A stretch of DNA of 57,547 nt from a virus, in IMG/VR virus record IMGVR_UViG_3300045988_027578, one strand, 5' to 3'. The notes under the pieces are model-generated. The model had not been told where the DNA came from. It ran no database searches and saw only the letters and a program-made list of their open reading frames with translations. Numbering within the stretch: the stretch's first letter is position 1; each line of letters begins with the position of its first letter. The position numbers were made by a program, and so were the translations under genes. Shown here one piece after another: positions 23,913 through 43,116 of this stretch.

Positions 23913-23996
23913 TCGTGTCAGTCAATGAAAGTATAATGGTTGCAAAGGATAGTACACTGCGACTTGTGGCGAATGCATACTGGGAATAGCCACTAT

Positions 23997-24068
23997 TGCC
24001 CTTTAGTATAATGGCTAATACACAGGATTTTGATTTCTGTAATATGGGTTCGATTCCCATAAGGGTAG
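23997..24068 (+). tRNA. tRNA-Gln (anticodon UUG)
   Basis: Hand-folded cloverleaf: acceptor TGCCCTT/AAGGGTA (U1-A72), D stem GTAT/ATAC, anticodon stem CAGGA/TTCTG, loop TTTTGAT, T arm ATGGG-TTCGATT-CCCAT. Confidence 0.85.
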
Positions 24069-24318
24069 TTTATTTTTCTTTTTATTCGTTTGGCTGTTCA
24101 TTATTGTGTTTTTGCATTTTACACAGAACAGTCCTCCTTTCATATACCTCTTTGGATTTTGTTCAGTTAAAAGCGGTGCAAGACCGCTTGAGAGGGTTTG
24201 GCGTGTATATACATAGCCATGTGAAAATCAGCTTATCAAGAAGCACTCCTTATCAAAACACCCCTAATATTTTATTGTTTCTGTTCTTGTTTCTTGATAG
24301 CCGTTATAGGCGGTATTT

Positions 24319-24405
24319 GCAGATATGGTGTAATGGTATCACAAGAGATTGCTAATCTCTCTAACGAGTAAAATCGTTATGCAGGTCCGATTCCTGCTAT
24401 CTGCG
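24319..24405 (+). tRNA. tRNA-Ser (anticodon GCU), class II with a long variable arm
   Basis: Acceptor GCAGATA/TATCTGC, anticodon stem AGAGA/TCTCT, loop TTGCTAA, variable arm AACGA/TCGTT, T arm GCAGG-TCCGATT-CCTGC. Confidence 0.85.
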
Positions 24406-24476
24406 CTAAAATCCTTTTTCAAGTCTGCGTGCGTAAGCTGGTAGCAGACTAATACTAGTTAGAATAGGGTTTTGGT

Positions 24477-24607: not shown

Positions 24608-24634
24608 TAACAGCAAACTAGGTTAGCTACCGAA

Positions 24635-24663
24635 AAGCAGACCACGACTGCTTGTTTGTTGTT
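24635..24663 (+). terminator. rho-independent terminator ending the tRNA cluster
   Basis: AAGCAG-accacga-CTGCTT followed by GTTTGTTGTT. Confidence 0.65.
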
Positions 24664-24706
24664 ATATCTAAAATCGTGGAAATTATCATTCGTGGAGGTA
24701 AATAAA

Positions 24707-38756: not shown

Positions 38757-40028
38757 GTGGAATTAGATTCATTAGAAGTCAAAATTACCGGTACTGCAAC
38801 TAAAGCTATCAATTCTGTTGATAAACTGATAAATCAGCTTACAAGGCTATCTACATCACTTGCGACTGTGAATGGCTCATCATTAAGCAACCTTGCAAAC
38901 GGCGTTAGTCAGTTAGGTTCTGCTATGCAGAATATGAACGCAGGAACAGCAGATTTTACAAGACTTGCCAAGAATATTACAAAGATAGGCTCTGTTGATT
39001 CAGCCGCACTTGCTAACACAGCTACATCACTTGAAGCCGTTACGAAAGCGGTTGCAAGCATATCAGCCATACCACAGAACGCAACACAGGTTACAGAATT
39101 TGCAAAGTCACTTGGCAAGCTAGGCAGTAAGAGTATAGAAAACGCCGTTGTAAACATTCCAAAGCTAGGCAATGCTTTAAATGGCTTAATGACAACGCTA
39201 TCAAGAGCGCCAACAGTAAGTCAGAATGTTATTCAAATGACTAATGCATTGGCTAATCTTGCTAGTCAAGGTAGCAAGGTGGGTACTTCTTCAAACTCAC
39301 TTCAAAAGTCGCTGTATGGCGTTTCTACAAGTGCTAGAACAGCAACTAGAAGTAGTTGGAACTTAGCAAGTGCAATAGGTAAGTTTTATGCCACTTATTT
39401 TATGGTAATTCGTGGCAGCAAGAAACTTATAGAAGCTATTAAGTCAACAACAGATTACATTGAAGCGTTCAACTATCAAGCGGTAGCGTTTGGTAAGATT
39501 GGTTCAGAATGGGATAAGGATTACGAAAAGTACGGATATGATAATGCTACGGCATACGCAGAAAGCTTTCAGAACAGAGTAAATGATACTCTTGGAAAGT
39601 TATCTGGACTAAAAGTTAATGTTCAAGGCGGTTTGCTTGAAGAAAGCGGAGCAAAGAACTTAGGACTTAATATACAAGAAGTAACACAGTATGCTTCACA
39701 GTTAGCTTCTGTTACTAATTCGTTAGGACAGACAGGCGAAGCAACAACGGCTATAACAAAGTCAATGACAATGCTTGCGGGCGATATAAGCTCACTTTTC
39801 AATGTGGACTATTCAACAGTAGCACAGAACTTACAAAGCGGTTTAATCGGACAATCGAGGGCATTGTACAAGTATGGTATTGATATTACCAATGCTACAT
39901 TAGCGACATATGCTTATAACTTAGGCATTTCTAAGTCTGTATCAGAAATGACACAAATGGAAAAACAGCAGTTAAGAGTGTTAGCAATATTAGACCAATC
40001 AAAAGTATCTTGGGGGGATTTAGCTAAT
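38757..40028 (+). CDS. tape measure protein, exon 1
   Basis: GTG start after AAGGGGG. TMP-like Ala/Ser/Thr-rich helices. Exon end proposed at T 40028 (...SWGDLAN). Confidence 0.75.
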
Positions 40029-40368
40029 AGACGGAAGAGAGTTAATGATATAGCTTGTCTTCCAAGTGTTGCATAAGAATGGAAACATCTTATGACAATC
40101 GGGCAAAATCGGTGAAGGCTAAGGCTATAAGCTATGCTAATACCGAGATAACTTAATAGATTACGAACAGGCTATTAAGTATTGTAACGAGTAGGAATTG
40201 AATAAATATAATATTCCCAAGAGTGTCCGACACTACTGCATATAGGGCAGTATGAGGTGGAAGTGGCTACCACCAAACCAAACGTAAAAACGTGGGTGAT
40301 AATGTACTCTGAACTTATAGGAAACTATAAGAAGTATAGGATAAAGAGCCTATACGATAACAAATTTG
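40029..40368 (+). ncRNA. putative ORF-less group I self-splicing intron
   Basis: 340 nt. Preceded by U and ending in G; removal restores the frame. Contains seven perfect 5-8 bp hairpins, including a GAAA tetraloop. Confidence 0.6.
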
Positions 40369-42423
40369 ACAATCAACTCCCCAAGTAACATGTTACGCCA
40401 GTTCAGCAACAATATGAAAGAAGTCGGAATGGTGGCAGGACAGCTGTTTATCCCAATTCTTTCAAAGGTTATGCCAGTTGTAAACGGCGTTACTATTGCA
40501 ATCAAGCGACTTCTAGTGAACCTTGCGAGCCTTATGGGTGTTAAGATTGACTTTGAGAGCTTCGGACAAAGCGGATACAAAGATACTTCTGACGGATTGG
40601 AAGATATTTCAGACGGATACCAAAATGTAGCGGATTCAGCAAAGAAAGCTACATTATCCCTTATGGGATTTGATGAAATCAATAAATTACAAGATGATAC
40701 AAGTTCAAGCAAGGGTTCAAGCGGTGGCGGCGGTAGCACTATTGATTTGACAGATGATATCGCTAAGGCGGCGGCTGATTATGAAGCGGCTTGGAATAAA
40801 GCGTTTGCCAATATGGAAAATTCGGCTGTTGCTTGGGCTGATAAGATAGAGAAAGCACTTGAACCTGTTAGGAAGATATTTAAAGACTTTGCAATCGGGG
40901 ATTTTTATGCAGCAGGACAAGACACATCTAACCTTGTGGCAGGAATTTTTAATTGGTTTGCAAAGGCTATAGATGATGTTCCTTGGTATACAATCGGACA
41001 TAATGTAGGAGAGTATTTAGCTGGACTTAATTGGGTTGAAATATTTTCAAGCCTTGGCAATGTGTTATGGCAAGCCATTAAAGCAGCTATCGAATTATGG
41101 AGCGGTTCATTTACGGCAGCACCAATTGAAACGACCTTAATAACGGCTATAGCGGCATTGAAATTTACAGGCTTAGGAAGCGTTTTGAAAAAGAAACTTG
41201 TTACAGTAATAGGAACAAGTATTAAAGGTGCTTTAAAATCATTCGGAACAGGCAGTATAATATCAGGAATAGGTGGATTACTTACAACAGATATAGGTAC
41301 TATTATAGGAGCAGGAACAGCAACAGAAATAGGCTTAACTATAGGTGCAGGAATAGTAGGCGGAATAGTAGCTGCTATTGCTGGATTTAATTTAGGTAAT
41401 TGGCTCAACGAAAAATTAACAGGCGAGAAAATAGATATGTCAATGTTTGACCAAATAGCATATCTTATAAAAGCACCATTTGAAGATTTACCTAGCTTTA
41501 TTGACGGAGTGATAGAAACTATCACATTTGGACATAAAGATGATATAGCAAATTGGTGGACTACAAGTGTTGCACCTTGGTTTACTAAAGAAAAATGGGG
41601 AGAACTGGGAGACAACATAAAAACATCTTTAAGCGAAAAATGGAACAGTTTTTCAGATTGGTGGGGCAATACAGCTATTGTTAGCTGGTGGAATAATAAT
41701 GTTGCACCGTGGTTTGAAAAAGAAACATGGGTTGACGCTGTTGATGGAATGAAATTAGGAATACAAGAAAAATGGGATTCAATCGTTGACTGGTGGAACA
41801 GTCTTGCAATTGTTTCTTGGTGGAGCAATGATGTGAGACCGTGGTTTACTAAGGAGAAATGGGAAAACTTAGCTGACGGAATTAAAAAAGGTATTCAAGG
41901 GAAGTGGGATGATGTTGTAGATTGGTGGGATAGCAAACCAGCACTTCAACGCATTTCTGTGGCTATCGAAGATTTTAAAGCTAAGATACAGAACGCTTGG
42001 AACAGCTTTAAGCAGTGGTGGAATGATTTAGGACTTGAATTTCCACACATTGATACACCACACTTTAAGATTGACGGAGAATTTAGTCTTGCACCACCTA
42101 AAGTGCCAAAAGTCAGTATTGATTGGTATGCAAACGGTGGCTTCCCAAACAAAGGACAGTTATTCGTTGCTAATGAAGTTGCACCCGAAATGGTTGGTAC
42201 TATGGACGGAAGAACAGCGGTAGCCAATCAGCAGGAAATCACAACAGGTATTGCTAATGCAGTTTATCCAGCGGTTTACAATGCGGTTGTAGCAGCTATG
42301 TCAGAAGCTAACAACAATGTAAACATAACATTACAAGGTGACGCAGATAAGCTGTTTACAATGGTGCAAGATAAAGCTAATAACTATACTAATATGACAG
42401 GGCAAGCAGCCTTTCCGTATTGA
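40369..42423 (+). CDS. tape measure protein, exon 2
   Basis: Begins TINSPSNMLRQFSNNMKEVG...QLFIPIL (TMP core motif). No RBS or ATG at the ORF start. Confidence 0.75.
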   Translation, partial: TINSPSNMLRQFSNNMKEVGMVAGQLFIPILSKVMPVVNGVTIAIKRLLVNLASLMGVKIDFESFGQSGYKDTSDGLEDISDGYQNVADSAKKATLSLMGFDEINKLQDDTSSSKGSSGGGGSTIDLTDDIAKAAADYEAAWNKAFANMENSAVAWADKIEKALEPVRKIFKDFAIGDFYAAGQDTSNLVAGIFNWFAKAIDDVPWYTIGHNVGEYLAGLNWVEIFSSLGNVLWQAIKAAIELWSGSFTAAPIETTLITAIAALKFTGLGSVLKKKLVTVIGTSIKGALKSFGTGSIISGIGGLLTTDIGTIIGAGTATEIGLTIGAGIVGGIVAAIAGFNLGNWLNEKLTGEKIDMSMFDQIAYLIKAPFEDLPSFIDGVIETITFGHKDDIANWWTTSVAPWFTKEKWGELGDNIKTSLSEKWNSFSDWWGNTAIVSWWNNNVAPWFEKETWVDAVDGMKLGIQEKWDSIVDWWNSLAIVSWWSNDVRPWFTKEKWENLADGIKKGIQGKWDDVVDWWDSKPALQRISVAIEDFKAKIQNAWNSFKQWWNDLGLEFPHIDTPHFKIDGEFSLAPPKVPKVSIDWYANGGFPNKGQLFVANEVAPEMVGTMDGRTAVANQQEITTGIANAVYPAVYNAVVAAMSEANNNVNITLQGDADKLFTMVQDKANNYTNMTGQAAFPY

Positions 42424-42483: not shown

Positions 42484-43116
42484 ATGGGAGATAAGAAACA
42501 GAAAAAGAAAGATAGTAAACTTAGCATAGTGGCAGCGGTTATGGCACTTTTCACTTTTACAATTCCAGTAGCACTTATATTAGCTATTGTGGATTTGATT
42601 AAAAGCAAAGGGAATAGATCACAAAGGCATTTAGGTTCTTATTTTGCAATTATATTTTCGATATTGATGTTAATAGTAGTAATTGACAGAAATGGAAATA
42701 ATAACAATGCAGACGGCATAAATGTTACTAAACAAGCCGCTACAACAGAACAGAACACAGATACAGTTACATATGATAATACAACGCTTAAATATCTTAA
42801 GCATGATGTAATTACAGATAGCAATGGCAGAGAAGTTCTTGCCGTTTATTTTGACTTTGCAAACAATTCAGAAGATAACACAGCCTTTGCATATAATTAT
42901 AATGTTACATGTTTTCAGAACGGCAAAGAACTTGACTATCCGTTAGTTAGTTTTGACATTGACGAATACAATAATATTGCAAGAGAATTACAGACAGGTA
43001 CAAATATTACAGTTGCAAGGATATATATACTAGAAGATAAAAGTAATGTTGATTTAGAAGTAACGCCACTGGGAGATAATAAAAAACTTATGAAATTAAC
43101 ATTAGAATTACAGTAG
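42484..43116 (+). CDS. membrane-anchored protein with a DUF4352/DUF5067-like beta domain (moron)
   Basis: Two N-terminal TM segments, then ...REVLAVYFDFANNSEDNTAF... Confidence 0.55.
   Translation: MGDKKQKKKDSKLSIVAAVMALFTFTIPVALILAIVDLIKSKGNRSQRHLGSYFAIIFSILMLIVVIDRNGNNNNADGINVTKQAATTEQNTDTVTYDNTTLKYLKHDVITDSNGREVLAVYFDFANNSEDNTAFAYNYNVTCFQNGKELDYPLVSFDIDEYNNIARELQTGTNITVARIYILEDKSNVDLEVTPLGDNKKLMKLTLELQ

Follow-up and report, generated by a model that had tools for sequence, protein, structure and literature searches.

A probable endonuclease-less group I intron in the tape-measure gene of a siphovirus-type gut phage

The td intron of phage T4 belongs to subgroup IA and encodes the GIY-YIG endonuclease I-TevI in a peripheral loop, and the exon markers flanking it co-convert when it homes. 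Introns have also been described in phage tail genes. For prophages of the Bacillus cereus group, the survey by Tourasse & Kolsto (2008; PMC2504315) describes three intron sites in the tape-measure protein (TMP) gene (TMP-IVS1/2/3), occupied by introns of subclass IA1/IA2, several of which lack a complete endonuclease gene while others carry a GIY-YIG or HNH gene in a loop; the same survey also catalogues an intron in the TMP gene of Lactobacillus phage JCL1032. Tail-gene introns of Cluster J mycobacteriophages have been shown to splice (PMC3706429).

Here we analyse the IMG/VR virus record IMGVR_UViG_3300045988_027578, a stretch of 57,547 nt that we refer to as the window. Its TMP gene is interrupted by 340 nt (40029..40368) that very probably represent a functional, self-splicing group I intron of subgroup-IA-like type in a ~57-kb siphovirus-type gut phage, splicing activity being predicted from the sequence. 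A first-pass annotation of the same DNA had placed a group I intron at exactly these positions, and this placement is borne out independently by a match to the full Rfam group I model, by gapless protein and DNA joins and by compensatory base changes among relatives. The same annotation named no precedent in a TMP gene; precedents exist in the introns of the Bacillus cereus group (PMC2504315) and in the annotated JCL1032 gene. Because TMP introns have already been published, the intron reported here is well supported yet ordinary.

The Bacillus introns resemble the window intron in the class of the host gene, in an IA type that is putative for the window, in being polymorphic among related prophages and in a P1 that is adapted to each site; they differ in residing in Bacillus prophages rather than in a gut Clostridia phage. 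Unlike td, the window copy has lost, or never had, an endonuclease, and its host gene is structural rather than one of nucleotide metabolism. Distant blastn matches to the window intron fell in 153 GenBank phage records (Streptococcus, Staphylococcus, Bacillus, Clostridium and crAss-like phages). Two of these matches lie inside TMP genes: that of JCL1032, whose coding sequence is a two-piece join in the GenBank annotation, and that of Staphylococcus phage 6ec (Sextaecvirus), in which an HNH endonuclease sits between two TMP halves. Both contain a related RNA (77-84% identity at the P8-P9.1 end) inside conserved TMP motifs, but the insertion sites, marked here by a slash, differ (...ANRGM/DGTRAGTGLRK in JCL1032, ...VVQLG/NNMATQES in 6ec and ...GDLAN/TINSP in the window), and the 6ec endonuclease is of the HNH type whereas that of the window's siblings is GIY-YIG.

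Group I fold, guide sequence and covariation

When a short region (39900-40500, 601 nt) was searched, the Rfam model RF00028 (Intron_gpI) matched 40042-40331 over its full length (model positions 1-253) with 46.8 bits (E = 8.3e-11). This score lies ~3 bits below the curated gathering score of 50. With the gathering threshold applied to the window, Rfam reported two tRNAs and the int-alpA motif and no intron match, and in a whole-window scan by E-value the RF00028 match was lost to speed filters. The missing whole-window match is therefore an effect of filter and threshold, and the short-region scan recovers it. [quoted passage not shown]

The minimum-free-energy fold of the insert reached -91.2 kcal/mol, compared to -66.5 +/- 4.6 kcal/mol for 100 shuffled sequences (z = -5.4), none of which folded as well. 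Using the RF00028 alignment together with relatives of the intron, we built a P1-P9.1 model in window coordinates (Table 1), and every nested helix of this model is contained in the unconstrained fold. The fold also recovers all seven stems listed in the first-pass annotation, and the P3/P7 core, on whose existence that annotation had made its reading depend, can be built and covaries. Every related intron aligned terminates in G, as does that of the window at G40368, and U40028 closes exon 1, so that the splice-site U and omega-G proposed earlier both stand. The P7 strands agree with the Rfam consensus GACUA/UAGUC, and their invariant G40189-C40309 pair is likely the guanosine-binding pair. 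In subgroup IA (phage-type) introns, the extra helices P7.1 and P7.2 are found between P7 and P3'. In the window, one covarying hairpin of P7.1 type occupies this place (40194-40217), no P7.2 was found, and the putative IA-like assignment is based on that one hairpin.

Table 1. Coordinates of the exons, predicted intron helices and splice sites in the window.
Feature	Position	Strand	Details and evidence
Exon 1 of tape-measure gene	38757..40028	+	424 codons up to ...WGDLAN, with U40028 as final base; PHROG TMP families span the junction
Exon tract, -13 to +21	40016..40389	+	10 synonymous differences from intron-less L007
P1 5' strand (exon UAAU + intron A40029)	40025..40029	+	Pairs with 40067-71; U40028 would wobble with G40068
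Group I intron (very probable), 340 nt, without endonuclease ORF	40029..40368	+	RF00028, intron-less alleles, covariation, fold z = -5.4
P1a/P1b, 12-bp extension hairpin in P1 loop	40033..40063	+	P1a 40033-38/40058-63, GGAAGA/UCUUCC; one G.U; P1b 40040-44/40051-55, AGUUA/UAGCU; minimum-free-energy fold; pairing kept in variants
Internal guide sequence UGUUG (P1 3' strand), probable	40067..40071	+	Directly 5' of P2; from alignment
P2 hairpin CAUAAGA/UCUUAUG (40072-78/40088-94)	40072..40094	+	Fold
P3 5' strand UCGGGCA	40099..40105	+	Pairs with 40224-40230; 100% paired, 5/7 pairs change on both sides
P4 (40109-14/40141-46), P5 (40117-19/40136-38), P5a (40123-26/40130-33)	40109..40146	+	Covariation
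P6 hairpin CUUAAUAG/CUAUUAAG (40152-159/40172-179)	40152..40179	+	8/8 pairs change on both sides
P7 5' strand GAGUA	40189..40193	+	Pairs with UACUC 40305-40309; 100% paired, 2/5 compensatory (e.g. A-U to C-G)
P7.1-like hairpin GGAAU/AUUCC (40194-198/40213-217)	40194..40217	+	Between P7 and P3'; 99% paired, 4/5 compensatory
P3 3' strand UGUCCGA	40224..40230	+	Covariation
P8 domain, closing stem 40231-33/40296-98	40231..40298	+	Encloses P8a, P8b and P8c; covariation, fold
P8a; P8b; P8c	40234-39/47-52; 40256-60/70-74; 40282-85/90-93	+	Covariation, fold
P7 3' strand UACUC	40305..40309	+	Pseudoknot with P3; covariation
P9 hairpin, GAAA tetraloop (40314-320/40325-331)	40314..40331	+	Identical in at least 119 viral contigs
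P9.1 hairpin GUAUAGG/CCUAUAC (40334-340/40349-355)	40334..40355	+	100% paired, 3/7 compensatory
Omega-G, 3' splice site	40368..40368	+	Junction set by intron-less alleles
Exon 2 of tape-measure gene	40369..42423	+	684 codons plus stop, begins TINSPSN...; joined-protein alignments

Relatives were gathered by scanning IMG/VR for the P9 motif, which yielded at least 119 contigs; because P9 served as the search pattern, its invariance is uninformative. Some of these contigs have the window's intron at the TMP site known from the window, some have that intron enlarged by a ~935-nt insert, some carry an intron of 72% identity in different TMP genes, and the remainder are more distant relatives in other phage genes. 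Across 20 sequences aligned by nhmmer profile search and MAFFT, standard pairs filled 94.7% of cells, compared to 82.5% after shuffling and 31-41% when the partners were slid by 1-3 columns, and 35 pairs had changed on both sides compared to 9-15 in the slid controls. None of 500 shuffles attained any of the observed covariation measures. Compensatory changes were seen in P3, P4/P5, P6, P7, P7.1, P8 and P9.1, with P8c, for example, changing from ACGU/ACGU to ACAU/AUGU in contigs L210 and L178. Variants of P1a/P1b likewise preserve pairing (for example, U.G to U-A), and L209 has a shortened version of this hairpin.

For the guide sequence, exon UAAU together with A40029 can pair with UGUUG at 40067-71, an arrangement that nests properly and puts the guide directly before P2. 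The CAAGUGUUGCAUAAGAAU segment is invariant in 26/26 unique same-site introns, and the resulting P1 is short, with 5 bp that include two G.U pairs. We consider it reasonably likely that UGUUG is the guide and that U40028.G40068 forms the splice-site wobble. Related introns use the guide position seen in the window: L179 pairs CACCGU with GCGGUG and JCL1032 pairs GGGAU with GUCCC. In L172, exon CGAU pairs with GUCG, which involves a compensatory change at exon position -3. For P10, no convincing partner of the guide region turned up; a segment of 8 nt (40039-46) is near-complementary to positions +4 to +11 of exon 2 and overlaps P1b.

A different P1 had been proposed earlier, in which GUUA at 40041-44 pairs with exon UAAU. 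This pairing crosses the first of the annotation's own stems (GGAAGA/UCUUCC, 40033-38/40058-63), and GUUA is sequestered in the 12-bp hairpin of the minimum-free-energy fold. In same-site siblings it is replaced by GCUG (6 loci) or GUUU (4 loci), and in L209 the segment is deleted. The GUUA assignment is probably wrong.

Could the insert be a decaying remnant that no longer splices, leaving the TMP gene a pseudogene in a defective phage? The missing homing endonuclease, an Rfam score below gathering and a weak P1 would all suit such a state, as would the standard model of the homing cycle, in which the endonuclease is lost before the intron degenerates (PMC2504315). However, every core helix is intact in the window copy, and pairing has been kept by compensatory changes in at least 30 ORF-less copies from different genomic backgrounds. 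Of 19 contigs with precisely this exon-1 ORF, the three read (L004-L006) contain the identical 340-nt intron, both exons are open and 98% identical to intact alleles, and the TMP is essential for tail assembly. On this evidence, we regard a splicing-dead remnant as very unlikely.

Tape-measure gene and exon junction

ORF 38757..40076 encodes 439 aa; ORF 40366..42423, which is 290 nt away and uses another frame, encodes 685 aa. Excision of 40029..40368 restores the frame exactly and fuses ...QSKVSWGDLAN/TINSPSNMLRQF... into a TMP of 1,108 aa, joined in the same register as in intron-less alleles; the coordinates, the arithmetic and the length of about 1,108 aa put forward in the first-pass annotation all hold. 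The intron and exon 2 have the same first base, A, which leaves their boundary ambiguous by 1 nt; 40029..40368 is the sole option that places U at -1 and closes the intron with G.

Uninterrupted relatives of the joined protein align across this junction. A 118-aa junction-spanning peptide gave single ungapped matches to uninterrupted TMP genes of GenBank phages, with residues 2-106 aligning without a gap over 315 nt of MT835537. The joined protein has 41% identity over 780 residues to the 'minor tail protein' of Dulem virus 39 (1,078 aa), again with no gap at the junction (WGDLANTINSPSN in the window compared to WGDLADTINQPAN). In a large protein collection, the best 120 matches were single proteins of 1,064-1,152 aa (mostly 1,107-1,110) with 88-98% identity and 98-100% coverage, and more than 100 intron-less TMP alleles of 1,107-1,110 aa had 92-98% identity. 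At the DNA level, intron-less sequences (L007-L009, and the IMG/VR contigs L010-L089) align base for base through the junction. PHROG TMP families 1535 (1.7e-41), 167 and 31409 align through residue 424/425, and the Pfam TMP_3 match is weak. The gene order is that of a major tail protein, two small genes and the TMP, with the gene for the major tail protein identified by its match to PHROG 158. When the TMP region was compared with GenBank phages by megablast, no close relative came up, and the matches obtained were stretches of 50-70 nt in intron cores. The gapless protein and DNA joins indicate one host TMP gene with a precisely delimited insert, and the core motif that had been described as continuous across the join is indeed continuous in uninterrupted TMPs, including that of Dulem virus 39.

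The C-terminal half of the TMP (window 41500-42000, residues ~800-950) contains tandem tryptophan-rich repeats (…VAPWF(T/E)KE(K/T)W…WW…) of the kind typical of length-determining TMP repeats, and related alleles diverge there to 67-78% identity. On the intron-bearing contig L005 (4673-7320), the exon-2 ORF is called as 1,087 aa, compared to 685 aa in the window, and continues past the end of the locus; its length suggests a fusion or a TMP variant extended in the C-terminal part.

Gene calling yields two ORFs here, and a TTG at 40366 is a possible start codon, as would be expected if two separate tail genes encoded independent proteins on either side of a structured non-coding spacer (a terminator, a regulatory RNA or another element). 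Yet the interruption cuts through a conserved TMP motif that runs unbroken in every homologue, no ribosome-binding context is present, and exon 2 opens merely 24 nt before the junction. The supposed spacer, moreover, matches the group I model over its full length and shows the covariation of such an intron, and near-identical genomes exist precisely without it, which together make a pair of genes extremely improbable. Least credible of all is that the gap is crossed in translation by bypassing or frameshifting, as the +1 frame offset between the ORFs and the 50-nt bypass in phage T4 gene 60 might suggest, or that the insert is a group II intron, an IStron or a MITE, since 340 nt far exceeds known bypasses, no other Rfam family matched the intron region at E <= 10, neither a transposase nor terminal inverted repeats were seen, and a group I core accounts for the entire insert.

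If the insert is a group I intron, as we favour, the late transcript would fold into P1-P9.1 and an external guanosine held in P7 would attack after U40028, which would be presented as a U.G wobble by the guide at 40067-71. The 3'-OH of exon 1, thereby freed, would attack after omega-G40368, and the ligated exons would form the mRNA for a single 1,108-aa TMP. The TAA at 40074-76, inside P2, is the in-frame stop of the unspliced exon-1 ORF, and ribosomes on unspliced RNA would halt there; splicing of the intron is predicted to be required for TMP production.

Endonuclease-bearing siblings and allele states

It had been stated that the intron carries no homing endonuclease, and this is correct for the window copy, whose longest internal ORFs encode 33-43 aa, but not for its siblings. 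At the same TMP site, the P5 loop of these siblings is enlarged at 40122/40123 by an insert of ~935 nt that encodes a 311-aa protein with GIY-YIG (PF01541, 1.5e-9) and NUMOD1 (2.4e-13) domains and matches to PHROG homing-endonuclease families. The final codons of this endonuclease (YANTEIT) extend into the shared P5'/P4' core. The window copy has no endonuclease gene and so cannot promote its own homing. Given the enzyme encoded by its same-site siblings, it is an endonuclease-less relative of a mobile intron, and it shows presence/absence polymorphism at a fixed site.

Among the 119 contigs listed, which share a 17-nt exon-2 pattern and make up a rough sample rather than a census, 71 have an empty site, 30 an ORF-less intron and at least 12 an intron with endonuclease, leaving 6 that were not classed. 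The ORF-less copy is one of three population states, the others being the empty site and the intron with a GIY-YIG gene in its P5 loop. Its spread would most likely occur by ordinary recombination, or else in trans, with the endonuclease of a co-infecting sibling cutting an empty site; the intron itself disrupts the site that it occupies.

The ORF-less copies are of at least two forms. One of them (L132, L210 and L178; window 40120-40135 region) retains AGUUUUCAA, with which the endonuclease insert starts and which we interpret as a deletion scar left by a loss of the endonuclease independent of the window's form. The form found in the window has a short GGCUAUAAGC hairpin in place of the scar. 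Because the scar is present in one ORF-less form and not in that of the window, either the ORF-less state arose more than once or one form predates the endonuclease.

The exons next to the insertion site differ between occupied and empty alleles. Compared to the intron-less L007, the window differs at 16/200 flanking bases, and the 10 differences that fall within -13 to +21 are all synonymous, including TCC/AGC and AGT/TCA serine switches. Across 134 alleles, nearly all intron-bearing ones have the synonymous variants between -4 and +18, compared to a minority of the empty ones, whereas markers farther out occur in both alike. Intron-bearing alleles almost uniformly read GCTAAT/ACAATCAACTCCCCAAGTAA and most empty sites GCCAAT/ACGATTAACAGCCCATCAAAT; across the junction, the sequence of the empty-site allele is GCCAAT/ACGATTAACAGCCC. 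Roughly ten of the empty alleles resemble occupied ones in their flanks (ACAATCAACTCG) and could be precise losses or uncleavable sites. The tract has the pattern expected of co-conversion during homing, but selection for pairing or for endonuclease resistance could account for it instead.

A second lineage of related introns (L172/L199, from IMG/VR gut phages) occupies the same TMP motif with the same architecture and a 72%-identical core. In most of its copies, an endonuclease lies in the same P5 loop (~25 endonuclease-bearing relatives, for example L093). Unlike the window intron, it is inserted 9 nt (3 codons) downstream (GDFAKTAD/TWANS) and has the guide GUCG rather than GUUG. A junction peptide of this type is gapless against the TMP of Roseburia phage Jekyll, and L107 has the same 3' exon motif.

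The same intron family, recognized by an identical P9 and a near-identical P9.1, interrupts other phage genes as well (L179, L104, L105 and L127). In L179, the host gene has a YAPY/VEFGTG junction and looks like an HK97 gp10-like head-tail protein; in L104, the intron lies in a second TMP motif, at a site common to JCL1032. Twin group I introns with very short exons between them were seen in L091, where two RF00028 matches (1802-2024 and 2335-2584) lie ~300 nt apart, and in L105, where the P7'/P9-like end of another intron immediately precedes the first (upstream of 6696).

Tentatively, these observations can be put together as a very abundant gut-phage lineage in the middle of a homing cycle, with ~60% empty sites, ~10% endonuclease-bearing introns and at least two independent ORF-less forms at ~25%, the ORF-less intron both blocking cleavage and moving in trans. 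Under this possible scenario, the ORF-less copy may owe its persistence to shielding its site from the GIY-YIG enzyme of the siblings and to being mobilised by that enzyme in trans during co-infection. If it were true, the presence of a second related intron lineage 9 nt away would make this TMP motif a contested homing hotspot.

Phage context and consequences for annotation

The window has 37% G+C and nearly all of its genes lie on the + strand; its relatives, at 56-59 kb, are of similar size. Among species-representative genomes, the closest TMPs have 80% identity and belong to 'Firmicutes bacterium CAG:882' and to 'Clostridium sp. CAG:510'; those of Lachnospiraceae come next. The host is probably a Lachnospiraceae-type Firmicute.

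Two further regions of the window deserve mention. Genes for tRNA-Gln(UUG) and tRNA-Ser(GCU) are followed by an int-alpA Rfam RNA motif (window 23996-24069, 24319-24406 and 24611-24675, respectively), the last with 37.2 bits compared to a gathering score of 35.8, and this stretch may mark an integration or regulatory module. Directly downstream of the TMP (window 42484-43116), a gene kept at that position in all relatives examined encodes a protein that matches DUF5067 (2.9e-22), has a hydrophobic segment at its N terminus and looks like a membrane or lipoprotein-like moron within the tail module.

The window intron leaves general knowledge of group I introns unchanged, TMP introns being already known. 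Its practical consequence lies in annotation: gene callers split an essential tail gene into two 'hypothetical' ORFs, and the default Rfam threshold overlooks the intron. TMP length, and with it the predicted tail length, is expected to be wrong in many gut-virome annotations. For the biology of such introns, the value lies in the lineage, in which hundreds of near-identical metagenomic genomes contain all three allele states together with a linked exon tract, making it a ready natural data set on how structural genes of phages gain introns, how the endonucleases are lost and how flanking sequence is co-converted.
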